Assembly: GCA_038257845.1 (NCBI GenBank)
Contig: JBBSQL010000011.1
Span: forward strand, 9,152 to 73,151
DNA length: 64,000 nt
Origin: Chitinophagales bacterium
Lineage (GTDB): Bacteria > Bacteroidota > Bacteroidia > Chitinophagales > Chitinophagaceae
Reading direction: 5' to 3'
Numbering within the stretch: the first letter of the stretch is position 1; each line of letters begins with the position of its first letter. A model generated the notes under the pieces. The model was not told where the DNA came from. It saw nothing but the letters and a program-made list of their open reading frames with translations, and searched no databases. Both the position numbers and the translations under genes were made by a program. Shown piece by piece: positions 620-30,494 of this stretch.

Positions 620-2314
620 CTACTCCACTACCAACTTCACGCGGCCGGTGAAATCCCCGCTCTTTAAAAGCAAATTGTAGGTGCCTGCGGCTATACTGCG
701 CGGCAAATCAAAACTCAGGGATTGCCTGCCACCCGTGTATTCTATGGCTTTTTCAAATACGCGCTGGCCATTGATCGCGGTAAGTATTAATGTATATTTT
801 CCCACAGCTAAATTGTTCATGTCGAGTGTGAAATGTTTGTTCTGCACGGGATTGGGATATACCCGGAAGCCATTTGGATTATTATCGCTGAAATTAATTT
901 TAACCGTATTGGTATAACTTGTTGCACCATCTTTTTCCCAAACTTTTACGCGGTAAAAATTGGACCCATTCAATGGCTTGCTGTCTGTGTATGCATATTT
1001 ATTTTCCGGCTCATTATTGTCGCTCGCTTCAACATTTCCCAGGCCAATAAAATTCACTGCATCACCGGAACGCTCGACTGTATATTTATCAATATTTATT
1101 TCATTCAAACTTGTCCAGGTGAGATCAACAACATGCCCATTCGCGGCGGCTTTTAAATCGGTGATGGTAACAGGCAACACAATCGCACCGGGATTCACTA
1201 CGGAAAAACGTGTGAAACTATCAATACGTGTAGGCTTACTTATATTTGTATATTCTCCATAAATTTCTGTGTTCGTTAGTGCGCCTACGAAATTTTTACG
1301 ATCTGCACCTTGTGCTAAAGCAATGAATCCATTATTCAATGGCTCATAATTTTTTTGAACCAAAGCACATTGGGCATAATCAAAACCCGGATATTCTACT
1401 TCATTTTGTGTAGAAGGATATAAGCCAGTTGTACGTTTTGTAAAAAATAAACGCATATTTGACATTCCTTTTTCCAGGGGTGCATTGGTTTTTACATACC
1501 AGATCCTGTTTACATGCCAGGTAGTGGAAACACCATTTACAACGGTCTTTCCAATGTCGCCAATATTAACGATGACCGTAAAATTAGCGGCTGCTGAATA
1601 ATTATTCAACATCATTCGGTTGGGCGATGGTATTCCACCTGTAATAGCAGGTATATATGTAGCGCCAATAGGAAAATATGTATCAGTATTTGCTAAATTA
1701 ATAATGCGGAAACCCAGGTTGCCGTTATAAGGCGTTGTTGCAGAAGCGCCATCTGTAATGGGTATTCCCATTGAATCGCAGGTGGCAATATAACTATCAG
1801 TATAAAGAGTGGCACCACCTGATTCACCAAGGCCGGTCCCCGGCATTGAAATTGTGCCGGTGTTTTCCCAGGTAAATAAATTGGCGCCTGTTGTAATTAT
1901 TCCTTTTACTAATGTAAGATTCTTTTTCGTGAATACATTTTTATACATAAACACCAAATTGGTCGTGGTTGTTTTTGAAAGCGTCAGGTTATTTAAAAAA
2001 AAATTCTCAGCGCCATTCAATCTAGTAACTGCATTATTTCCCTGCAAAATTAATGTACCGGAACTCGTAGGTGTGCCATAAGCCATGCCCGCCTGGTCAT
2101 TTTTGAAACTGCCATCGAGATAAAAAAATCCATTGTTGAAATAGCTGGCCGTACTCGAATTTTCTATATCCCCTTTTACATACACATTTCCGCTGATATA
2201 CATATTGCCCTTGTTGTAAACTTGTGCCTGCAAAGGATTTTCAAAGATCAATAATAAAATAGCCGCACAGAAAAGTGCTGCCATTTTCTTGCTAAAAAGT
2301 AAATATGTTTTCAT
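620..2314 (-). CDS. Secreted protein with a T9SS type-A C-terminal sorting domain
   Basis: A signal peptide starts at the internal ATG (MKTYLLFSKKMAALFCAAILL...AQ). An Fn3-like module (DLTWTS...YRVKV) is followed by YPNPVQNKHFTLDM...GRVKLVVE, typical of a Por secretion tail. Confidence 0.8.
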   Translation of the reverse strand: MKTYLLFSKKMAALFCAAILLLIFENPLQAQVYNKGNMYISGNVYVKGDIENSSTASYFNNGFFYLDGSFKNDQAGMAYGTPTSSGTLILQGNNAVTRLNGAENFFLNNLTLSKTTTTNLVFMYKNVFTKKNLTLVKGIITTGANLFTWENTGTISMPGTGLGESGGATLYTDSYIATCDSMGIPITDGASATTPYNGNLGFRIINLANTDTYFPIGATYIPAITGGIPSPNRMMLNNYSAAANFTVIVNIGDIGKTVVNGVSTTWHVNRIWYVKTNAPLEKGMSNMRLFFTKRTTGLYPSTQNEVEYPGFDYAQCALVQKNYEPLNNGFIALAQGADRKNFVGALTNTEIYGEYTNISKPTRIDSFTRFSVVNPGAIVLPVTITDLKAAANGHVVDLTWTSLNEINIDKYTVERSGDAVNFIGLGNVEASDNNEPENKYAYTDSKPLNGSNFYRVKVWEKDGATSYTNTVKINFSDNNPNGFRVYPNPVQNKHFTLDMNNLAVGKYTLILTAINGQRVFEKAIEYTGGRQSLSFDLPRSIAAGTYNLLLKSGDFTGRVKLVVE

Positions 2315-2324
2315 ATACAAAAAT

Positions 2325-3056
2325 TTAATTTTGTTTGGTCGTATCTGCTGCCATCGCATTTGCGACGGCTAAATTATTTTTTGCCTGGTCAAAATCAGGT
2401 GTTTCTTTTATGGCTTCTTCAAAATTGATGACCGCACTTTTTTTATCTTTTAAATCCAAATAAGCAAGGCCTAAAAGATTGTGTACGGCCGCGCGTAATG
2501 AAACGAGCTGCAGGGTTTTTTCCTGCAGTTTTGCCATGCGTACCTGTGTGCTGTCATTCGGTGGAATCATTGCCAGCACTTTATTTCCCGTAACAACTGC
2601 TTCCCCCAGCCGGCGAATTCCATATTCCAATTGCAATTGTTCCATGCCATATACCGGGTTTTTGGTTCGTGTAAAAAGATCCGTGTACGCATTGATGGCT
2701 TCAATGGGTTCATTGAGATTTTTTGCCGCAAGGCCTTTTATCTGCATGCGGATTTCTGTGTACCCTTTTTGCGACAGCAACCGATCGGCTAAAATATATG
2801 CCGGGTTGAATGCATTGATCTGTGTATATAAAATTGCGAGTGTGTCTTCATATTTTCCATATTTCACAGAATCCGCCGCGATGAGATAATGCAATGACTG
2901 TATGGCTGTGCCAAGGTCATTTAAGGAAAGTGCATTTTGATATACTTTTAATTGCACCAATGCCGGATCGGGTGTTTTGGTTTGTGCCCGTAAAGCATTG
3001 GTGCCGCTGCAAAGCAGCGCTGTGATCATTAAAGAAAAAATGAGTTTTCGATGCAT
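2325..3056 (-). CDS. Secreted tetratricopeptide-repeat protein
   Basis: Signal peptide plus repeated A/L/Y-rich TPR-like helices (LGLAYLDLKDKKSAVINFEEAIKETPDFDQAKNNLAVA). An 11-nt gap separates it from the downstream gene. Confidence 0.65.
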   Translation of the reverse strand: MHRKLIFSLMITALLCSGTNALRAQTKTPDPALVQLKVYQNALSLNDLGTAIQSLHYLIAADSVKYGKYEDTLAILYTQINAFNPAYILADRLLSQKGYTEIRMQIKGLAAKNLNEPIEAINAYTDLFTRTKNPVYGMEQLQLEYGIRRLGEAVVTGNKVLAMIPPNDSTQVRMAKLQEKTLQLVSLRAAVHNLLGLAYLDLKDKKSAVINFEEAIKETPDFDQAKNNLAVANAMAADTTKQN

Positions 3057-3086
3057 TTTTTTTGTATAAAAATGTGTGCTTATTAT

Positions 3087-5276
3087 TTAATCTTTTTTCG
3101 GTACAGGTGGCGTGTTATTATTTTTATCGGTACTGTTTTTATCCTGGAATGTTTTTAGCAACTGCGGATCTTCTGGTGTAGCTTTTTTAACCGATGATTT
3201 TGAATTTCCTTTCATAGGATTCTTTCCCATACCGATTAAATTATTGTCCATTTGAGACATCTCTTTTGCTTCCTGCGGACCTGGACCGGGTGGCATGCGT
3301 ACATCAGCATTTTTTGACAGTAGAGTTTTACCATCTTCTTCAAATTCGTCTGCCCTGTTGCCGACAGTATGCCAGAAAAAAGCCACATTGCTTTTTCCAC
3401 CCTGCAATTCCACCACGTCAAATCCATCACCATTTACATTGGTTACAAATACACCTTTACAATCACCATTGAGTTGTATAAAAACACGCAGTGGATGTTT
3501 TTCATTCACTGTAATATTTTTTGCATAAACAGCATCAATTTTGATATGCGCTTGTCCATTTACCAATACGCCTTTTCCATAATCTTCAAACAAAATCTCA
3601 GGCGCTTCGGGTGCAAAAAAGTTTACACGTTGGTTTTTTGTATCTTTTACTATGGTTGCAACTGTACCTGTACCATTTATTTTATATTGAGTAGCATTTA
3701 TTTGCGCTCCAACATAAGCATAAGTTGTAGCTGTATAGGGTGCATTAGCGGAAATACGTGTAGCAAAATAACCACCTGCATAATATCTATTTCCAACTGG
3801 AAACCCGCCGCCACCCCCGGTTCCATTGTCTCCATAATTTGCAAAGCCCGCTACACCAATTACCGTTCTATTGTCAGTCTTTATACCATTTCCCGTAAAG
3901 GAACCCCCTGCCCCCCCGGTAGGATATAAAGTTATAGGTATCGGTGCATCACTAACTTGTGAACCAAAAACGCCTGCTGCGCCGGGAGCTCTATAAGCAT
4001 TAATTCCAAAAACGCCTGCACCAGTAGAATTTGCGGTATAACCTATAACACCTGCATCATCTCCAATTCCATAGATCCCATAAACATCTGAAGTGCCATA
4101 AACACCAATATCCAAAAGGGTTCCAGAAGCTAATGTAGTACCACCGGCACCAAAACCTGTAACCCCAGCACCCCATCCAGCTGCATTATAAGTACCATAA
4201 ACCCCCTGCTGAAATACTGAAGTATTATCATTTAAACCATATACCCCATAACCACTAGCACCATCGCTTTCTCCATAAATACCATAACCTGCGGCCCCTG
4301 TATTGTTTCCCCATAAACCTCGGCCACCACCAGAAGTAGAATAACCAAAGCCACCTACAAGTGTTCCTACTAATGAAGCACCACTTCCCTGGATAACAAA
4401 GTTCGTATTCAATCCCACATTATTCCCACCGGCATACAAGCCGGTACCACTAGCATTGGTGTTTAAAGCAACTACACCATAACCATTTCTAGTAGGTCCT
4501 GCCGCATAAGCCTGTGCAGATAAGCCTTCCACACCGATACCGTTTCCGTTCGTACCGGAAACAGCTGAGTTTTGTCCCAAAATAGCAATACCCGCTGCAT
4601 TGCTGTTGGTACCTTTTACACCATTACCAAGAGATTGAATGGTTGTTCCCAGTACACCAATTCCTCCAAGTATCCCGGCCACTGCTGTGTTTTGTCCCAC
4701 GATAGCAGTATTGGCTGCAGTTGTTGTAGTTACTGCGAGCTGTTGCGTGATCAACGAGTTTTGATTGATACCAATTTGCCCGGTATTGCTAATGCGCATG
4801 CGTTCTAAATTAAATGTGCGCACGGCAAAATCCACATTATCTATTGTACCGAGAAAGTTGGCTCCGGGCGCTGCGTAGGTTCCGGGAACTGTAGCACTGT
4901 TTCCCGTAAGCAGCCAGTCGGCATTTGCGCCGTTTTGCAAATAGTTCCATTTTGCAGTTGCCCAGTAATAAATTCCGATACCCGAACCGCCGGTGGTGGC
5001 GGCATTACTGTTATATACAAACATGCCATTAACCGGCGTTGCGCCGGCGAGTCCCCAGGTAAGGATATTACCAATAGAAATTCTTGGTAGTAAAATACCC
5101 TGGTTAGTTGCTTCCACTTCAAGCATAGAACTTGCGTCAATGATAGTCGGGTTATTGCCCACTTTCATTTGAGCGAAGCTTTGCGTATGGCCGAAGCAAA
5201 ACGCTACAACTATTGCCAGCAGGGATTTTGCGCCGTGCATAGCATTTTTTTGTTTATGTAAAATTTGAGATTTCAT
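3087..5276 (-). CDS. Secreted glycine-rich repeat protein (putative beta-helical surface or fibre protein)
   Basis: Signal peptide. The N-terminal module MKVGNNPT..LEVEATNQGILLPRI recurs in Bacteroidota surface proteins. About 350 aa follow of degenerate G-x-G-[VI]-[YF]-G repeats. No T9SS tail is visible. Confidence 0.7.
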   Translation of the reverse strand: MKSQILHKQKNAMHGAKSLLAIVVAFCFGHTQSFAQMKVGNNPTIIDASSMLEVEATNQGILLPRISIGNILTWGLAGATPVNGMFVYNSNAATTGGSGIGIYYWATAKWNYLQNGANADWLLTGNSATVPGTYAAPGANFLGTIDNVDFAVRTFNLERMRISNTGQIGINQNSLITQQLAVTTTTAANTAIVGQNTAVAGILGGIGVLGTTIQSLGNGVKGTNSNAAGIAILGQNSAVSGTNGNGIGVEGLSAQAYAAGPTRNGYGVVALNTNASGTGLYAGGNNVGLNTNFVIQGSGASLVGTLVGGFGYSTSGGGRGLWGNNTGAAGYGIYGESDGASGYGVYGLNDNTSVFQQGVYGTYNAAGWGAGVTGFGAGGTTLASGTLLDIGVYGTSDVYGIYGIGDDAGVIGYTANSTGAGVFGINAYRAPGAAGVFGSQVSDAPIPITLYPTGGAGGSFTGNGIKTDNRTVIGVAGFANYGDNGTGGGGGFPVGNRYYAGGYFATRISANAPYTATTYAYVGAQINATQYKINGTGTVATIVKDTKNQRVNFFAPEAPEILFEDYGKGVLVNGQAHIKIDAVYAKNITVNEKHPLRVFIQLNGDCKGVFVTNVNGDGFDVVELQGGKSNVAFFWHTVGNRADEFEEDGKTLLSKNADVRMPPGPGPQEAKEMSQMDNNLIGMGKNPMKGNSKSSVKKATPEDPQLLKTFQDKNSTDKNNNTPPVPKKD

Positions 5277-5312
5277 AATTGGCTGTGGTTATATGTTGTA
5301 TTATTTTTTAAA

Positions 5313-5913
5313 GGCTTGGGGGTTGGGGATTATATGTGTTGACCTGATCATGGGGATGCAATTATTTTGATTGCGGCGAATTCAAAAATAAAGATAGTTA
5401 AAATAATGAAAGAAAGAAATTAAGATTGGATTAAGAATGTTTGGGGTCGGGGGTTGTTGATAGCAGTATGTGGTCGGATGAAATTGTTTTAGGTTTGGGT
5501 TGTTTAAAGTATGCAGAGCAAAATTGAAATTGTTTTGGGTTTGGGGTTTGGGGTGTTAATAGTAGTTAGATCGAAATTGGAATTGTTTTGGGTTTGGGGT
5601 TTGGGAAGCAGGCGGCTGAGCGAAGTCGAAGCCGTTGTTATGGGTTTGGGTTTGGGGTGTTTAAAGCATGCAGATTAAAATTGAAATTGTTTGGGGTTTG
5701 GGAAGCAGGCGGCTGAGCGAAGTCGAAGCCGTTGTTATAGGCTTGGGATGTTGATATTAGTTAGATCGAAATTGTAATTGTTTCTTGTTTTGGGTTTGGG
5801 TTTGGGGTGTTTAAAGCATGCAGATTAAAATTGAAATAGTTTTGGGTTTGGGGGGTGATAGCAATTAAATCGAAATTGGAATTGTTTCTTCTTGGGGGTT
5901 TGGGTTTTTTTTC
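5313..5913. repeat. G-tract satellite array A1 (about 10 units, period 45-59 nt, mostly 46)
   Basis: Units start at about 5439, 5486, 5532, 5585, 5637, 5689, 5734, 5780, 5839 and 5885. Each reads GTTTTGGGTTTGGGG(TTTGGGG)-variable 16-20 nt-AAATTG[A/G]AATT. Confidence 0.9.
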
Positions 5914-5985
5914 ATTAACCTTTAACCATTTTCCATTTACCATTAACCATTTACCATTAACCATTAACCATTAACCATTTTCCAC
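5914..5985. repeat. Imperfect heptanucleotide tandem array H1 (CCATTAA)n
   Basis: Sequence is cattaacc tttaacc attttcc atttacc attaacc atttacc attaacc attaacc attaacc attttcc. Confidence 0.9.
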
Positions 5986-6324
5986 TGTTAGCTGATTCCA
6001 AATACCCCATACCTCACGGCTAAAATCAATACACAAAACGTTCCTTCGGAACGATCTCTCAATAATAGAATTCTCCTACCCACAAAACGTTCCTACGGAA
6101 CGATACTTCCATCATATAATTTTTCTACCTCTATGAATATAGAGACAAGCCCACGAAATGTTCCTCCGGAACTTGCTAACTTTCTCCACGCATTTTTTGT
6201 TTTCAAAAATGACTGAATGTGATGAAGCAAAACCTTATTCACCTTAGAAGAAAAATCAAAACACAGGAAACACCAACCTTATTAGTTTATTAGCTTATTA
6301 AAAATCGAAATGTGCATAACAGTT
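5986..6324. other. Conserved non-coding segment U1 (paralog of 8198-8455)
   Basis: It aligns end to end with U2: tgttagctgattcc[a/t]aataccccatacctcacggctaaaatcaatacacaaaac ... cacgcattttttgttttcaaaaatgactgaat ... caccaaccttattag ... aaatgtgcataa. U1 has an extra 50-nt hairpin unit. No conserved ORF on either strand. Confidence 0.8.
6039..6172. repeat. Three tandem GTTCC-N3-GGAAC hairpin units
   Basis: cgttccTTCggaacg (6039-6053), cgttccTACggaacg (6088-6102) and gttccTCCggaac (6160-6172). Each is preceded by cacaaaa[c/t]; on the minus strand each is followed by TTT[T/C]GTGGG. Confidence 0.8.
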
Positions 6325-6526
6325 GTTTTGGGTTTGGGTTGTGGATAGTTGTAAGAACGAAAATGGAATTGTTTTGGGTTTGGGGTTTGGGAAGCAGGCG
6401 GCTGACGGACTTGAATTGAGCGACTTGCATTGAGCGGAGCCGAAGTGAGCCGAAATGAGCCGAAGCCGTTGTTTTGGGTTTGGGTTGTGGATAGTTGTTA
6501 GAACGAAATTGGAATTGCTTCTTGTT
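6325..6526. repeat. G-tract satellite array A2 (3 units, one carrying an 80-nt GC-rich insert)
   Basis: Units begin at 6325, 6371 and 6471. The insert gaagcaggcggctga...gagccgaagccgtt lies at 6391-6470. Confidence 0.85.
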
Positions 6527-6590
6527 CATTTATCATTAACCATTAACCATTAACCATTAACCATTAACAATTATCCATTAACCATTAACT
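6527..6590. repeat. Heptanucleotide array H2 (CCATTAA)n, abutting and overlapping the ndh stop codon
   Basis: Sequence is catttat cattaac cattaac cattaac cattaac cattaac aattatc cattaac cattaac. The ndh stop (6585-6587) lies in the last unit. Confidence 0.9.
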
Positions 6591-7859
6591 CTTATCCCCC
6601 GGCCTGATAATTAATCTCAGCGTGGGATCATTGGTAACGAAAGACCAGAACCAGCTAAAAGCGAGTTTGACTTTATTGCGGAAACCGGCAAGCGGTAAAA
6701 TATGTATGAACAACCAAACCAGCCAGGCAAAAAATCCCTTGAAGAAAATTTTCGGCAGATCGGCCACGGCCTTGTATTTGGAGATGATGGCTAAACTACC
6801 TTTATCATTATAAGCAAATGGTATCAATGCTTTTCCTTCCAGCATGCGTTGCATATTTTTTCCCAATAAATTTCCCTGCTGAATGGCTACCTGCGCGAGT
6901 TGCGGATGGCCTTTCGGAAAATTTTTATCAGATAATTGCAAACAAATATCACCGATGGCAAATATGTTTTTGGTTTGTTCTACTTTATTAAATTCATCCA
7001 CTAAAAGGCGGTTGCCGTGGCCGGTTGTTCCTTCGGGCAAACCGGGAATTACATGGCCCGTAACACCGGATGCCCAGATCAATGTATTGGTAGAAATGGT
7101 CTTGCCATCGCTCAGTGAAACGATGCCCTGATCATAACTTTTTACGGCGGTGTTCATTTTTATTTCCACGCCCAAATGCGTTAAGACCTTAAAGGCTTCT
7201 GCCTGTGATTTTTTACTCATCGGTCCGAGTAAAGCACTGCCTGCATCCACGAGATGAATACGGACATCTCCTGCATTTATTTCGAGGTATTCTTTAGAAA
7301 CAATATTCTTACGCATTTCTGCAAGCATGCCCGAAATCTCAACGCCAGTAGGGCCTCCGCCGGCAATGACGATATTTAATTCCTGTTGTTTTTCTGCGGT
7401 CGTAGCAGCACGGGAAGCTTTTTCCAGGCTTAGTAAAAGATGGTTGCGCAGGTTGATGGCATCATTGATATTTTTCATGGGCATGGCATTTTTTTCCACG
7501 TCCTTCATACCGAAATAATTGGTTTGTGCACCAATGGCGATCACTAAAAAATCATAGCCCAGGTTGCCGGTATCTGTAACGATATAATTTTCTTCCGGGA
7601 AAATACGCAGGATTTTTCCCATGTGAAAATGAATATTTTTTTTCTCCTGGAACATGCGCCGGAAGGGATAACTAATATTGGATGGCTCTATAAATGCCGT
7701 GGCTACCTGGTATAAGAGGGGCGGGAAAAAGTGATAATTATTTATATCAACAAGTGTTATGTCCAGGTTCTTATTACGTGAAAGTTTTTTAATCAAATTC
7801 ACGCCGGCAAATCCGCCGCCGGCTACTACTACTTTTTTTGGGGGTGTTTTCATTTTCAT
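6585..7859 (-). CDS. ndh: Type II NADH:quinone oxidoreductase (NDH-2, FAD/NAD(P)-binding)
   Basis: KKVVVAGGGFAG and IVIAGGGPTGVE dinucleotide folds plus the IFAIGD motif. Length is typical. Start chosen at MKMKTPP; the ORF-track start at 7889 is less likely. Confidence 0.9.
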   Translation of the reverse strand: MKMKTPPKKVVVAGGGFAGVNLIKKLSRNKNLDITLVDINNYHFFPPLLYQVATAFIEPSNISYPFRRMFQEKKNIHFHMGKILRIFPEENYIVTDTGNLGYDFLVIAIGAQTNYFGMKDVEKNAMPMKNINDAINLRNHLLLSLEKASRAATTAEKQQELNIVIAGGGPTGVEISGMLAEMRKNIVSKEYLEINAGDVRIHLVDAGSALLGPMSKKSQAEAFKVLTHLGVEIKMNTAVKSYDQGIVSLSDGKTISTNTLIWASGVTGHVIPGLPEGTTGHGNRLLVDEFNKVEQTKNIFAIGDICLQLSDKNFPKGHPQLAQVAIQQGNLLGKNMQRMLEGKALIPFAYNDKGSLAIISKYKAVADLPKIFFKGFFAWLVWLFIHILPLAGFRNKVKLAFSWFWSFVTNDPTLRLIIRPGDKS

Positions 7860-7886
7860 CGAAATTTTATATAAACAAAATCTATG

Positions 7887-7894
7887 CAAAGGTA
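7887..7894 (-). promoter_or_regulatory. Bacteroidota -7 box TACCTTTG (TAnnTTTG) for ndh
   Basis: Exact match to TAnnTTTG, 28 nt upstream of the ndh ATG. It sits between the gene and satellite array A3. Confidence 0.5.
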
Positions 7895-7906
7895 GGACAG
7901 AAAATT

Positions 7907-8152
7907 GTTTGGGGTTTGGGGTGTTTAAAGCAGTTAGATCGAAATTGGAATTGTTTTGGGTTTGGGGAGATTAAAGCATGAAGATTAAAATTGAAATTGT
8001 TTGGCGTTTGAGTTGTTCATTGCACCGGGGTCAAAATTGAAATTGTTTGGGGTTTTGGTTGTTGATAACATCGGGATCAAAATGGAATTTGTTTTGGGTT
8101 TGGGTGTTGAAAGCAATTAGATCGAAATTGGAATTGTTTCTGGTTTCTTATA
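7907..8152. repeat. G-tract satellite array A3 (5 units plus a terminal unit, period exactly 46 nt)
   Basis: Unit starts are 7907, 7953, 7999, 8045, 8091 and 8136. Confidence 0.9.
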
Positions 8153-8197
8153 CATTAACAATTAACCATTAACAATTAACCATTAACAATTAACCAT
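8153..8197. repeat. Heptanucleotide array H3 (alternating CATTAAC/AATTAAC)
   Basis: Sequence is cattaac aattaac cattaac aattaac cattaac aattaac cat. Confidence 0.9.
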
Positions 8198-8455
8198 GTT
8201 AGCTGATTCCTAATACCCCATACCTCACGGCTAAAATCAATACACAAAACATTCCTACGGAACGATACTTCCATCATATAACTTTTCTACATAGAAATGA
8301 TCCTCCGGAAAATGCCAACTTACTACACGCATTTTTTGTTTTCAAAAATGACTGAATTTTTTGAGGCAAAACCTGATTAACCTTAGTAGATAAAAACAAA
8401 CACCGGAAACACCAACCTTATTAGCTTATTAAAAATTGAAATGTGCATAATAGTT
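8198..8455. other. Conserved non-coding segment U2 (paralog of 5986-6324)
   Basis: See U1. Same orientation, about 85-90 percent identical by eye, and it carries one good and one degenerate GTTCC/GGAAC hairpin (8250-8264, 8301-8309). Confidence 0.8.
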
Positions 8456-8583
8456 GTTTGGGGTTTTGGGTGTGGATAGTACGAGAATCAAAATGGAATT
8501 CGTTTTGGGTTTGGGGTGTTGATTGCAGTTAGTACAAAATTAAAATTATTTCTGTTTTCTGGTTTTTTGTTTCAGTATGTTAG
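8456..8583. repeat. G-tract satellite array A4 (2 units plus a degenerate terminal unit)
   Basis: Units begin at 8456 and 8502, followed by a degenerate tttctgttttctggtttttt. Confidence 0.8.
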
Positions 8584-8640
8584 CCATTTACAATTAACCA
8601 TTAATCATTAACAATTAACCATTATCCATTAACCATTTTA
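8584..8640. repeat. Heptanucleotide array H4, abutting the stop of the response-regulator gene
   Basis: Sequence is ccatttac aattaac cattaat cattaac aattaac cattatc cattaac catttta, immediately before the stop at 8643. Confidence 0.85.
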
Positions 8641-8642
8641 TC

Positions 8643-9074
8643 CTAAATAATAAACGACCCCACGGTAAACGGATAGCTGTTATTGGCAGCATTGAATTGA
8701 AAAAGATCCAGTATTTTTTTGCGCAGTTTATGAAATTCTATTGGCTTATGAAAAAATGCGGTAGCGCCCATGGCTTTAGTTATGGCAATGGCTTCCTTAT
8801 CATTTGTTGTTGTAAAAATGATGACGGGAATATCAATAAATTTTTTATTTGACTTCATGGCAGCCAGGCATTCGATGCCATTCATCAATGGCATATTCAG
8901 GTCGAGAAAAACCACGTCAGGAATAAATGTTTTTAATTTTTCAAGCGCTTCTATTCCATTATTGGCGATCTCGTAATGCATAGTGGCATCAATTTCCTGT
9001 AAAGCATTTGTAAAAAGTAACTGGTCATCCGCATCATCGTCAACCATTAATACATTCTTATGTCTGAGGGGCAT
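8643..9074 (-). CDS. Stand-alone response regulator (receiver domain only)
   Basis: Contains VLMVDDDADD...DVVFLDLNMPLMNG...K. No output domain. It lies downstream of the kinase gene. Confidence 0.85.
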   Translation of the reverse strand: MPLRHKNVLMVDDDADDQLLFTNALQEIDATMHYEIANNGIEALEKLKTFIPDVVFLDLNMPLMNGIECLAAMKSNKKFIDIPVIIFTTTNDKEAIAITKAMGATAFFHKPIEFHKLRKKILDLFQFNAANNSYPFTVGSFII

Positions 9075-9125
9075 TGTTTAAATTATGCTTCTAAATTAAA
9101 CTAAGTTGACTAAAAAAAATATAAA

Positions 9126-10535
9126 TTATTTTCCAGGAAAATATATTTCGAAAGTTGCCCCATTGCCAGGTTCAGATCTTGCTGTAATAAAGCCATTATG
9201 ATTGAGCATGATCTTCTGGCAAAGAGCCAGGCCGATACCGGTACCGGTATATGCTTCCCGGCCGTGAAGGCGCTGAAATAATTCGAATATCCGTTGTGCA
9301 TATTTTTGATCAAAACCAATTCCATTGTCGTGAAAACTGATCTTCCAGTATTGCTGGTTTAAATATTTTTCCATCCCATTATCACCAATCTGTGTTTTTT
9401 CCGCGGTGATCACAATTTTACACGGCTCATCTTTTTTTGCATACTTAATGGCATTGGAAATAATATTGGTAAACACCTGGACTATTTGCAGTTCTACACC
9501 TTCAATTTCAGGAAGAGGCCGGGATTCTATGTGTACATTTTTAGTTTCAATTGTTTCCGATAAATTTTCTTTAGCTTCATTCAGTACTTTATCCAGGCGA
9601 ATGGGAATGAAGGGAATATTTTTCACATTGGTACTGGAATAGCTCAGCAATGCAATAATGAGTTCCTGCATGCGCGCCGCCGCATTATTGATGCGCACCA
9701 TATAATCTTGCGCTTTTTCAGACAATGTATTTTTTTCCTGGTTGATGATGAGGTTGCTGAAGGATTGAATTTTTCGCAAAGGTTCCTGGAGGTCATGAGA
9801 AGCCACATAGCTAAAGGAAGAAAGTTCCGCATTATTCAATGACAATTCCCGGTTCATATCATGCAAATTATTTTCTGCACGTACCCGTAATTGTATTTCT
9901 CTTTTTAACCTGAAATAAGCAAAGGTCACAATGAGTATTCCAATAATTGAAAATATTAAACTATAAAATGGCGTGATGAAAGCAGCCTGGTTGCTAGTAA
10001 TTGTTTTGATGTCGAGGGCTTTATTTTCATAACTGCTCATTTGCGCAATCAGGCTGCGTGAATGATTCATTATATTCCTGCCATTATTCAAATAAGTTCT
10101 TCTGTCAAGAGGTATAGTATCTTCATTTAATATTTGATTGGGTAAGGTAGAAAAAATCCTGTAGCGGGTAGCTACAAGGCTTTTCAGTACTTCAAAATTT
10201 CCATGTTGCTCACTATCACCGGCTAAAGAAATTTCCAGGCTATCAAGCAATTTATTTATTTTTTCATGTGAGCCAATAAATGGTTTTAAAAAATCACTGT
10301 CGTGGGTAAGCAGGAAACCCCGCTGGCCAGTTTCCGCATTGAGCAGGGAAATAAGAATTTGGTTTAAACGAAGGTTTACTTCTTTATTGTGTGCAATGGA
10401 AGCATTGATATTGTTCAGGGAAATGATCCGGTTATAAGAAATAAAAGTAACTGCCAGCATTACGATGAGCAAAATGCCGAAGAGCAGGTTAGGCAATATG
10501 AGCCTGGCTTTTTGAATATGCAAAATGAATTGCAT
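9126..10535 (-). CDS. CHASE3-domain sensor histidine kinase
   Basis: One TM helix, a CHASE3 hallmark (NAETGQRGFLLTHDSDFLKPF), a second TM helix, an H-box (ASHDLQEPLRK) and an HATPase domain (GTGIGLALC). Start set at the ATG giving MQFILHI; the track start at 10583 is TTG. Confidence 0.85.
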   Translation of the reverse strand: MQFILHIQKARLILPNLLFGILLIVMLAVTFISYNRIISLNNINASIAHNKEVNLRLNQILISLLNAETGQRGFLLTHDSDFLKPFIGSHEKINKLLDSLEISLAGDSEQHGNFEVLKSLVATRYRIFSTLPNQILNEDTIPLDRRTYLNNGRNIMNHSRSLIAQMSSYENKALDIKTITSNQAAFITPFYSLIFSIIGILIVTFAYFRLKREIQLRVRAENNLHDMNRELSLNNAELSSFSYVASHDLQEPLRKIQSFSNLIINQEKNTLSEKAQDYMVRINNAAARMQELIIALLSYSSTNVKNIPFIPIRLDKVLNEAKENLSETIETKNVHIESRPLPEIEGVELQIVQVFTNIISNAIKYAKKDEPCKIVITAEKTQIGDNGMEKYLNQQYWKISFHDNGIGFDQKYAQRIFELFQRLHGREAYTGTGIGLALCQKIMLNHNGFITARSEPGNGATFEIYFPGK

Positions 10536-10608
10536 TTTTTTTAAAAAACTAGGCTGCTGAGCTGGTGTGGTTTCCTGGTTCAAAGCAAAAGTTATGACAC
10601 GAAATTAT

Positions 10609-15277: not shown

Positions 15278-15346
15278 TTGTTCCAGCGGAACAACTTATG
15301 GGTAACATACTGGATACATTTTATATAACGCGTTCCGGAGGAACGC
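15278..15346. repeat. Two further GTTCC-N3-GGAAC hairpins (same family as 6039-6172)
   Basis: ttgttccAGCggaacaa (15278-15294) and gcgttccGGAggaacgc (15330-15346), each with a 7-bp stem and 3-nt loop. The trailing ..TT[A]TGGG and ..ATCGTGCC resemble the trailing motif of the U1 copies read on the opposite strand. Confidence 0.7.
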
Positions 15347-15534
15347 ATCGTGCCGGATGTCAGGACTTTCTAACCATGAAAAATTTCTTCAGAACTATCT
15401 TCTCACATCAAAGTTAACAGACCGGCAATATCGGAGACAAATTTTTTAAAAGAATATAATAAAGAAATTATTGGTCAGGCGACCAAAAATGGCTGTCTGT
15501 CTTCGAGTAAAAAGGCTGGTTACCGATTAAAGAA

Positions 15535-30436: not shown

Positions 30437-30494
30437 ATTGTTTAGATCACAAAATGTTCCACCTCCTTTTGCAATCCACGCTTATCTTTGCAGG

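Follow-up and report, generated by a model that had tools for sequence, protein, structure and literature searches.

Composite repeat modules on both sides of ndh in a soil Chitinophagales bacterium: a probable lineage-specific mosaic of non-coding elements

Why should a single respiratory gene lie between two long blocks of repeats? The question is raised by ndh, the gene for a type II NADH dehydrogenase (NDH-2), in a 64-kb stretch of DNA (hereafter, the window; positions 9,152 to 73,151 of contig JBBSQL010000011.1, assembly GCA_038257845.1) that comes from a soil metagenome and is assigned to a Chitinophagales bacterium. Two co-oriented composite modules bracket the gene, one at 5313 to 6590 (1278 nt) and the other at 7903 to 8640 (about 740 nt). 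An earlier note on this DNA had described them as a substrate for RecA-mediated deletion or amplification of ndh. The comparison presented here suggests a different answer, namely, that the spacers flanking ndh are probably lineage-specific accumulations of non-coding repeats, a mosaic similar to the bacterial interspersed mosaic elements (BIMEs) and BOX elements, most likely selfish or neutral in nature and not a device for gene control.

On the plus strand, both modules show the same order of parts: satellite, heptamer array, a segment referred to as U, satellite, and another heptamer array. All genes around the modules are encoded on the minus strand. Read in that direction, each spacer consists of a (TTAATGG)n array, a pair of GTGGATAG-subtype satellite units, the U segment (260 to 340 nt), heptamers, and a longer run of the 46-nt satellite with C3-4A3 tracts. 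The spacer between the stop codon of the upstream response regulator (RR) gene and the ndh start (7854 to 8642, 789 nt) and the one between the ndh stop codon and the start of the downstream PTL_trimer-family gene (5277 to 6584, 1308 nt) are made up almost entirely of repeats. The parts were recovered by Tandem Repeats Finder (TRF), a repeat finder, and mismatch-tolerant pattern searches. They are as follows.

About 5313 to 5912, no strand: A1, G-tract satellite with a unit of ~46 nt and a higher-order repeat of ~150 nt, carrying two 30-nt GC-rich inserts GAAGCAGGCGGCTGAGCGAAGTCGAAGCCG; located just upstream of the PTL_trimer-like gene (TRF, repeat families).
5913 to 5985, no strand: H1, (CCATTAA)n, ~10 units (TRF, pattern search).
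5986 to 6324, minus strand: U1, a putative truncated copy of an element resembling miniature inverted-repeat transposable elements (MITEs), with the left-arm boxes TAATAAGC-AATAAGGTTGG (6273 to 6293) and CTAAGGTGAATAAGGTT (6231 to 6247) followed by three hairpin units (alignment with U2, L046, L005, and L006; comparison with the L133 element).
6325 to 6526, no strand: A2, satellite units of the GTGGATAG subtype, broken by a GC-rich insert (~6392 to 6466) of 14-nt and 10-nt micro-repeats (TRF, repeat families).
6527 to 6590, no strand: H2, heptamer array whose final unit provides the ndh stop codon, 6585 to 6587 (TRF, pattern search).
7903 to 8152, no strand: A3, satellite with an exact 46-nt period (five units), next to the ndh promoter (TRF, repeat families).
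8153 to 8197, no strand: H3, alternating CCATTAA and CAATTAA units (TRF, pattern search).
8198 to 8455, minus strand: U2, the second U copy, lacking one 49-nt hairpin unit and a 20-nt insertion, with a hairpin at 8250 to 8264 and arm boxes at 8412 to 8432 and 8370 to 8386 (alignment, arm boxes).
8456 to 8583, no strand: A4, a pair of GTGGATAG-subtype satellite units, then a T-rich spacer (repeat families, module alignment).
8584 to 8640, no strand: H4, heptamer array separated by 3 nt from the RR stop codon (TRF, pattern search).

Every part of the twice-repeated, directly oriented architecture described in the earlier note was thus found at its plus-strand position. Within the window, the composite mosaic is confined to 5313 to 8640: a satellite 18-mer has 16 matches (0.12 expected from shuffled sequences) and a heptamer 15-mer has 25 (0.32 expected), all of them inside these limits. 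Satellite, heptamers, U, and GC-rich inserts follow one another twice in the same fixed order, with unit numbers that vary between copies and between lineages; the four heptamer arrays contain 6 to 10 units each, and two of them sit at stop codons. The segments 5880 to 6600 and 8120 to 8645 align end to end with a mean column identity of 79%, and the longest exact matches between the modules are 39, 36, 32, and 30 nt. U1 and U2 share no open reading frame (ORF) of at least 20 aa with conserved frame and length, in agreement with the previous claim that no ORF survives comparison of the copies, and the covariance models of Rfam 15 gave no relevant match at E ≤ 1 for positions 4500 to 9500. Some details called for correction. 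The two copies are unequal in size (1278 against about 740 nt). The gene placed at 6585 to 7859 is indeed ndh on the minus strand, but the recorded product spans 6585 to 7853; an exact look-up of two ndh start variants gave no matching record. The modules had also been said to end exactly at the stop codons of minus-strand genes: the ndh stop codon does lie within H2, whereas H4 ends 3 nt short of the RR stop codon (8643 to 8645).

In the sequences compared, the satellite and the heptamers were seen only at the ndh spacers of the window lineage and of a sister lineage described below. Exact searches of 185,579 representative genomes returned no match to a satellite 25-mer or to a 27-mer of U, and the satellite 25-mer had none in the Joint Genome Institute (JGI) metagenomes either; such scans probe only the exact form of a motif, and the window's own genome evidently lies outside the 185,579-genome collection. 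The GC-rich inserts GAAGCAGGCGGCTGAGCGAAGTCGAAGCCG (5606 to 5636 and 5703 to 5733) and the longer micro-repeat variant (6392 to 6466) interrupt satellite units. A G-quadruplex reading of the satellite was dropped, as the canonical motif (four runs of at least three G, loops of up to 12 nt) is absent from the modules, whose units have two or three runs.

The history of these spacers can be traced by comparing the gene neighborhoods, which in the window are as follows.

3087 to 5276, minus strand: PTL_trimer-family gene, 729 aa, coming after module 1 (precomputed PF26696).
6585 to 7853, minus strand: ndh, type II NADH dehydrogenase, 422 aa (Pfam Pyr_redox_2, 4e-42, and NDH2_C; recorded product P0002).
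8643 to 9074, minus strand: stand-alone RR receiver, 143 aa, 3' of the CHASE3 histidine kinase gene (Pfam).
9126 to 10583, minus strand: CHASE3 histidine kinase (HK) (Pfam).

The related locus L129, whose NDH-2 is 74% identical to that of the window, has the same order of 11 genes, including HK-RR-ndh-PTL_trimer, with spacers of 230 and 295 nt that contain no module motif. The HK-RR gene pair is also found in L005, L129, and L130, and the PTL_trimer gene of the window is 58% identical to the one after ndh in L001. These comparisons show that the HK-RR-ndh-PTL_trimer order is evidently ancestral and that the ancestral spacers were, by the same evidence, short and plain. Because L129 combines this order with motif-free spacers, the modules are lineage-specific expansions of pre-existing spacers. 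Ordinary ndh spacers are also found in L001 and L008, at 84 to 85% NDH-2 identity.

Variation in the neighbors of ndh could suggest another scenario, in which the gene and its flanking repeats form a mobile cassette, similar to a composite transposon, that was inserted between the RR and PTL_trimer genes: ndh is next to RlmN in L001 and to genes for catalase and a 579- to 591-aa oxidoreductase in L005, L007, and L130. An indel that comprises the catalase gene pair accounts for these differences, however; in L001, too, the genes after ndh are PTL_trimer, TPR, and one more; and neither a transposase nor inverted ends are found around ndh. A repeat-bounded cassette is contradicted by the gene order and plain spacers of L129, which leaves this scenario with next to no probability.

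The catalase and oxidoreductase genes lie between RR and ndh in L005 and L007 (87% NDH-2 identity) and in the sister lineage (L130 to L132, ~89%). This block, with a divergent NAD_binding_9 oxidoreductase (L130, 1097 to 5074; L005, 5832 to 9772), is absent from positions 7854 to 8642 of the window and from L129 and represents a two-gene oxidative-stress indel. A 579-aa ORF in the window (620 to 2359) was rejected as an orthologue of the ndh-adjacent oxidoreductase in L005. After RR, the sister lineage is free of repeats, and there is thus no sign that the catalase pair was lost via recombination between modules.

In L005, the region 3' of ndh contains three tandem hairpin units similar to the center of U1, with a diagnostic 20-nt insertion that is also present in L046, and L007 has, in the same place, tandem units whose TAATAAGG boxes resemble those of the U 5' half. 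Relatives at 87 to 89% NDH-2 identity thus already had, 3' of ndh, either hairpin units or repeats with TAATAAGG boxes. In the sister lineage (L006 and L130 to L134), ndh is preceded by a mini-U and two satellite units, and a heptamer array starts in its stop codon. The two satellite units are homologous to A3 and have the same place against the -7 box of ndh; H3 has no counterpart at the corresponding position. L130 to L134 encode identical NDH-2 proteins, and their flanks differ by a few single-nucleotide polymorphisms. The array after the ndh stop codon is exactly 35 nt (five units) longer in L131 (7258 to 7330) than in L130 (7258 to 7295), and L131 is the only member with these extra heptamers. 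Heptamer arrays, therefore, change in length by whole units between near-identical strains. This five-unit difference and the absence of H3 from the sister lineage are the behavior expected of slippage-prone simple repeats.

Heptameric simple sequence repeats (SSRs) with similar properties are known from Xanthomonas and Nostoc, where they cluster 0 to 50 nt after stop codons, sometimes overlap them, and differ extensively in length even among near relatives (Rehm et al. 2015, PMC4692102). With four or more tandem units, two arrays that adjoin or overlap a stop codon, and length polymorphism in whole units, the ndh arrays belong with these Xanthomonas and cyanobacterial repeats. In contrast to such repeats, the ndh unit is AT-rich (CCATTAA / TTAATGG) rather than G-rich and cannot form G-quadruplexes, and the window has only four arrays, all at the ndh spacers. 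The ndh stop codon is derived from the heptamer array both in the window (6585 to 6600) and in the sister lineage. The C terminus of NDH-2 past the conserved '...IIRP' differs in every relative (GDKS, KENC, GKKEES, VDKDD, KKDS, and others).

Taken as a repeat accumulation, the locus may have formed in a few steps. Slippage during replication and unequal exchange, next to a resident MITE-like element, would have enlarged the 46-nt satellite and the heptamer arrays, and the satellite-plus-U block upstream of ndh would be older than the divergence of the window and sister lineages. A single event may then have placed a second copy of the entire block (heptamers, two satellite units, U, heptamers, and satellite) in the other ndh spacer, as A2 and A4 share the GTGGATAG subtype and the modules align end to end.

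A duplicated module in a metagenomic contig might also be produced by collapsed or misjoined repeats. The source is a soil metagenome, and the unitigs of this region in Logan are shattered. The assembly was checked independently against the Logan unitigs of one public run that contains 88% of the sampled words of the window. U1 and U2 are distinct sequences, and unitigs match U1, A2, U2, and A4 without a single difference at a single-copy depth of ~10 to 16; one 245-nt unitig covers most of A3 (about 7932 to 8150), again with 0 differences. The junction between the PTL_trimer gene and A1 forms the end of an 8.9-kb Logan contig, matched up to position 5593. Inside A1, the segment 5689 to 5852 is matched at 3.7x the base depth, 5622 to 5688 and 5853 to 5912 are uncovered even at 85% likeness, and a 180-nt unitig with a depth of 44x (~3.7 times the base depth of 12x) loops back into the GC-rich insert. 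Owing to these gaps and the looping unitig, the assembled number and order of units in A1 are provisional. Another unitig of the same run links the G-tract and the GC-rich insert to a different upstream flank, indicating at least one further locus with this insert. Six sister-lineage assemblies, from at least five other samples, share the junctions between the satellite and the ndh promoter and between the ndh stop codon and the heptamers, as well as the U-like elements on both sides. An assembly artefact, the possibility raised at the outset, is therefore very improbable for the modules, with doubt limited to the interior of A1.

The U segments carry the conserved hairpins of the modules:

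6039 to 6053, minus strand: U1 hairpin c, CGTTCCGAAGGAACG then TTTTGTG, terminator-like on the gene strand (pattern, family membership).
6088 to 6102, minus strand: U1 hairpin b, CGTTCCGTAGGAACG then TTTTGTGGGTAG, terminator-like on the gene strand (pattern, family membership).
6129 to 6172, minus strand: U1 hairpin a, GTTCCGGAGGAAC and ATTTCGTGGGC (alignment).

In hairpin a, the GTGGG/GTAG tail is split by a 20-nt insertion, itself a small hairpin (CTCTATATTCATAGAG), which serves as a subfamily marker common to L005 and L046. The hairpin motif has 9 matches in the window (0.12 expected from shuffles), 7 of them within 5313 to 8640; the other two represent both strands of a single 2-mismatch site at 15329 to 15347. 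A GGAACATTTTGTG string at 30448 to 30460 was ruled out as a member of the two-hairpin family described below.

The likely origin of U is indicated by a ~390-nt element of the sister-lineage locus L133 (1799 to 2186), which has nested inverted arms of ~50 nt (1799 to 1818 with 2167 to 2186, and 1836 to 1850 with 2136 to 2150), consisting of AATAAGCGAATAAGGTTAGA and TTTTCTACTAAGGTT and their complements. L133 and L130 carry several copies of U-like elements around ndh. MITEs with long terminal inverted repeats include Correia elements and those of the type of enterobacterial repetitive intergenic consensus (ERIC) sequences, also called intergenic repeat units (IRUs). The sister-lineage element resembles such MITEs in its size, non-coding nature, several copies, and nested arms, and has the terminal inverted repeats that define them. 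In the DNA compared, no gene came up as a candidate for its transposase. U1 and U2 retain the left arm only, plus hairpins, so that terminal inverted repeats are missing in the window; in view of the full element in L133, we infer that they are truncated copies of a ~390-nt MITE-like element.

A full U-like copy is found in a different gene context in L046. An nhmmer search of all fetched loci with the 5' half of U recovered only the two window copies and a weak hit in L046 (E = 0.42). The 3' flank of the U-like element (AATTTCTG..GAAAATTACA) is common to L046 and L005. Immediately 3' of the full element of L046, a low-coverage metagenome contig, the opposite strand encodes the 3' part of a tRNA gene (1015 to 1103). 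Among the MITE-like copies 3' of ndh in L133, two small overlapping ORFs (2503 to 3112; 153 and 52 aa) may form a two-gene cassette.

What the modules do for the cell appears to be minor. Three U hairpins fit, orientation included, the pattern of intrinsic terminators (a GC-containing hairpin plus a U-tract), and they lie after RR and after ndh; between 5200 and 9200, the minus strand has no other terminator-like site. To judge from this pattern, the U hairpins probably end or stabilize the RR and ndh transcripts. Any effect would be small: with the hairpins and U-tracts acting as terminators or 3'-end stabilizers, ndh would be a monocistronic unit served by its own -7 box, which is conserved:

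7887 to 7894, minus strand: candidate ndh -7 box TACCTTTG (read directly; conserved as TAYCTTTG upstream of ndh in seven related loci).

This box fits the Bacteroidota -7 consensus, TAnnTTTG, and the first satellite unit begins 8 nt upstream of it. A sigma-70 promoter scan was discarded, since it gave no more matches than in shuffles. Whole-U folding was likewise dropped as a strand indicator, as it did not distinguish the strands.

The main rival explanation holds that the modules are cis-regulatory DNA or small-RNA genes. The satellite would then bind a regulator or shape the promoter, U would encode a small RNA complete with promoter and terminators, and heptamer number would tune expression as in phase variation. 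The 8-nt distance of the satellite from the -7 box, with the same position in the sister lineage, speaks for this view, but relatives at 74 to 87% NDH-2 identity have the same box without the satellite, and a TAnnTTTG box is found on neither strand of the satellite unit. A small RNA would be consistent with the 29-nt block CAGTCATTTTTGAAAACAAAAAATGCGTG, which is 100% identical between U1 and U2 and is followed by terminator-like hairpins, and with the U-like copy in the unrelated context of L046. However, this conserved block is missing in L005 and in the mini-U of the sister lineage, and there is no Rfam match. Heptamer number does vary between strains, and the neighbors of the locus include a two-component pair and a stress island; still, the heptamers sit after stop codons, not between promoter elements or in ORFs, where phase-variable repeats act. 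On balance, a regulatory role is unlikely.

A further possibility is that the direct repeats serve, or regularly act, as a RecA substrate for deleting or amplifying ndh, thereby varying the dosage of the respiratory gene. The earlier proposal is right in that direct repeats do bracket ndh: co-oriented repeats of ~260 to 340 nt surround a single gene, with four exact stretches of 30 to 39 nt. In Escherichia coli, exact identity over 30 to 39 nt equals or exceeds the shortest match that RecA-dependent exchange requires. Divergence of the degree seen here (only ~79% identity overall) strongly lowers homologous exchange, and no positive evidence was found for deletion or amplification. The ndh gene is single in each of 13 related contigs, several of which are too short to reveal a second copy, and the source run contains no hybrid U1/U2 unitig or joint, although unitigs provide a weak test. 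A dosage function is thus quite improbable. Recombination between the modules is possible but weak, and rare events of this sort would be a by-product of repeat accumulation, not its purpose.

Absence of the element elsewhere was among the findings that the earlier note would have counted against its reading; in fact, the architecture recurs in the sister lineage, from other samples, and the core of U is widely dispersed. A scan of JGI metagenomes with a 22-nt hairpin pattern, CGTTCCNNAGGAACGTTTTGTG, matched at least 120 soil metagenome contigs; none of the 120 listed contains the satellite or the heptamers, and there were no matches in viral contigs and none in plasmids. The hairpin is part of a two-hairpin unit of ~80 nt, which consists of TGTYCC-NNN-GGRACA, TTTYGTGGGTAG, a spacer of ~22 nt, CGTTCCGTAGGAACG, and TTTTGTG. 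Among the matches listed, a second hairpin and TTTYGTGGGTAG are found upstream in 118 of the 132 distinct contexts, mostly 21 to 25 nt away; the upstream hairpin is accompanied by a conserved GTGGGTAG tag. The stems are 6 bp long, with loops of 3 to 4 nt. Generic two-hairpin units number 199 in 667 kb, compared to 0 to 3 in shuffles, with up to 8 units on one contig, and the copies often form inverted doublets or tandem runs. Again among the matches listed, 129 of 138 copies (93%) are intergenic, and the upstream gene is co-oriented with the element in 61 copies and not in 37, a mild bias. The two-hairpin unit is thus widespread between genes in soil Bacteroidota.

The upstream stem (hairpin A) lay outside the search pattern, so its covariation is independent of the choice of pattern. 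In this stem, 87 cells are changed on both sides, compared to 29.9 +/- 4.9 in shuffles (0 of 500 reached this value); one pair, for example, is UA in 50 copies and CG in 45. Compensatory forms include GTTCC/GGAAC, GTCCC/GGGAC, GCCCC/GGGGC, and GTGCC/GGCAC, and in controls with slid partners, pairing falls to 32 to 56%. The GTAG, 8 nt 3' of stem A, is nearly invariant (110 to 118 of 119 per position), and stem B is followed by TTTTGTG-CAA. No match to the element at E ≤ 1 was obtained from Rfam for 11 loci rich in it, and its sequence strings were not found in the searchable literature. One contig with the two-hairpin unit, L077, also encodes a Bacteroidales-type small signal recognition particle (SRP) RNA (2162 to 2268; RF04183, 88.8 bits), which fits a Bacteroidota origin of these contigs.

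In several respects, the two-hairpin core is similar to the repetitive extragenic palindromic (REP) sequences, their doublets (REPINs), and the associated REP-associated tyrosine transposases (RAYTs) (Nunvar 2010, PMC2817692; Bertels and Rainey 2011, PMC3116915; Di Nocera 2013, PMC3733652): like REPs, which are imperfect palindromes of 20 to 40 nt, it is short and shows compensatory change in its stem; it also has a GTAG tag and is abundant across metagenome contigs, intergenic, mildly 3'-biased, and often arranged in inverted doublets or tandem arrays. In contrast to REPs, where GTAG is directly 5' of the stem, the two-hairpin unit has it 8 nt 3' of the stem, forms a fixed pair of different hairpins, and has no cognate RAYT in the fetched DNA, where the sole Y1_Tnp gene lies beside another palindrome. 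Bacteroidetes REPs have been reported as CGTC-type only (PMC3733652). The Y1_Tnp ORF, the only one in a motif screen of all fetched DNA, is encoded in L055 (771 to 1415; Pfam, 1.6e-05); together with the long palindromes around it (GACTACGGTGGTTT...AAACCACCGTAGTC; 660 to 1570), this RAYT-like ORF looks like a separate REP-RAYT system of a soil Bacteroidota contig. Rather speculatively, the two-hairpin unit may represent an undescribed, actively maintained REPIN-like or IS200/IS605-style single-strand element, with a cleavage tag 8 nt 3' of the hairpin and an enzyme of its own; the ndh modules might then be a hotspot of this element that seeded satellite growth and altered the promoter context.

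Several observations weigh against the reading of the modules as a selfish or neutral accumulation around terminator-like hairpins. In both lineages, the satellite stands 8 nt away from the -7 box of ndh, a layout expected of a cis-regulatory array, and the reading accounts neither for this placement nor for the pile-up of satellite and heptamers at the two ndh spacers in particular. No RNA run was found to contain the locus, the terminator role is a putative one read from a sequence pattern, the 6-bp stems are short, and whole-U folding is only modestly better than in shuffles on either strand (z of about -2). The co-orientation count of 61 to 37 means that the two-hairpin element is not simply a terminator, and the sole Y1_Tnp ORF is flanked by a different palindrome (GACTACGGTGG...CCACCGTAGTC).

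The repeat-accumulation reading, which we still favor, has its closest parallels in the enterobacterial BIMEs and in the BOX elements of Streptococcus pneumoniae (boxA-boxB(n)-boxC; Croucher et al. 2011, PMC3049150), which, like the ndh modules, are extragenic mosaics of a few conserved parts. Shared features are a part of ~45 nt in variable tandem number, hairpin-forming parts, a usual location after gene ends, and the non-coding nature of the whole. The modules differ from BIMEs and BOX elements in their unrelated sequence, in belonging to a different phylum, in including heptamer microsatellites, and in that the satellite and heptamers are seen only at the ndh spacers of two lineages.

For the biology of ndh, these data give no indication of special regulation or dosage switching. 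Repeat mosaics of this kind break short-read assemblies, as seen in the close relatives, where ndh is found on contigs of 1.5 to 3.4 kb that end in repeats, and an annotator may take them for regulatory RNAs or mobile cassettes; the value of the finding thus lies mainly in annotation and caution. Its by-product is a well-defined, covarying two-hairpin intergenic element with a GTGGGTAG tag, common in soil Bacteroidota metagenomes and absent from Rfam, which merits description as a family.

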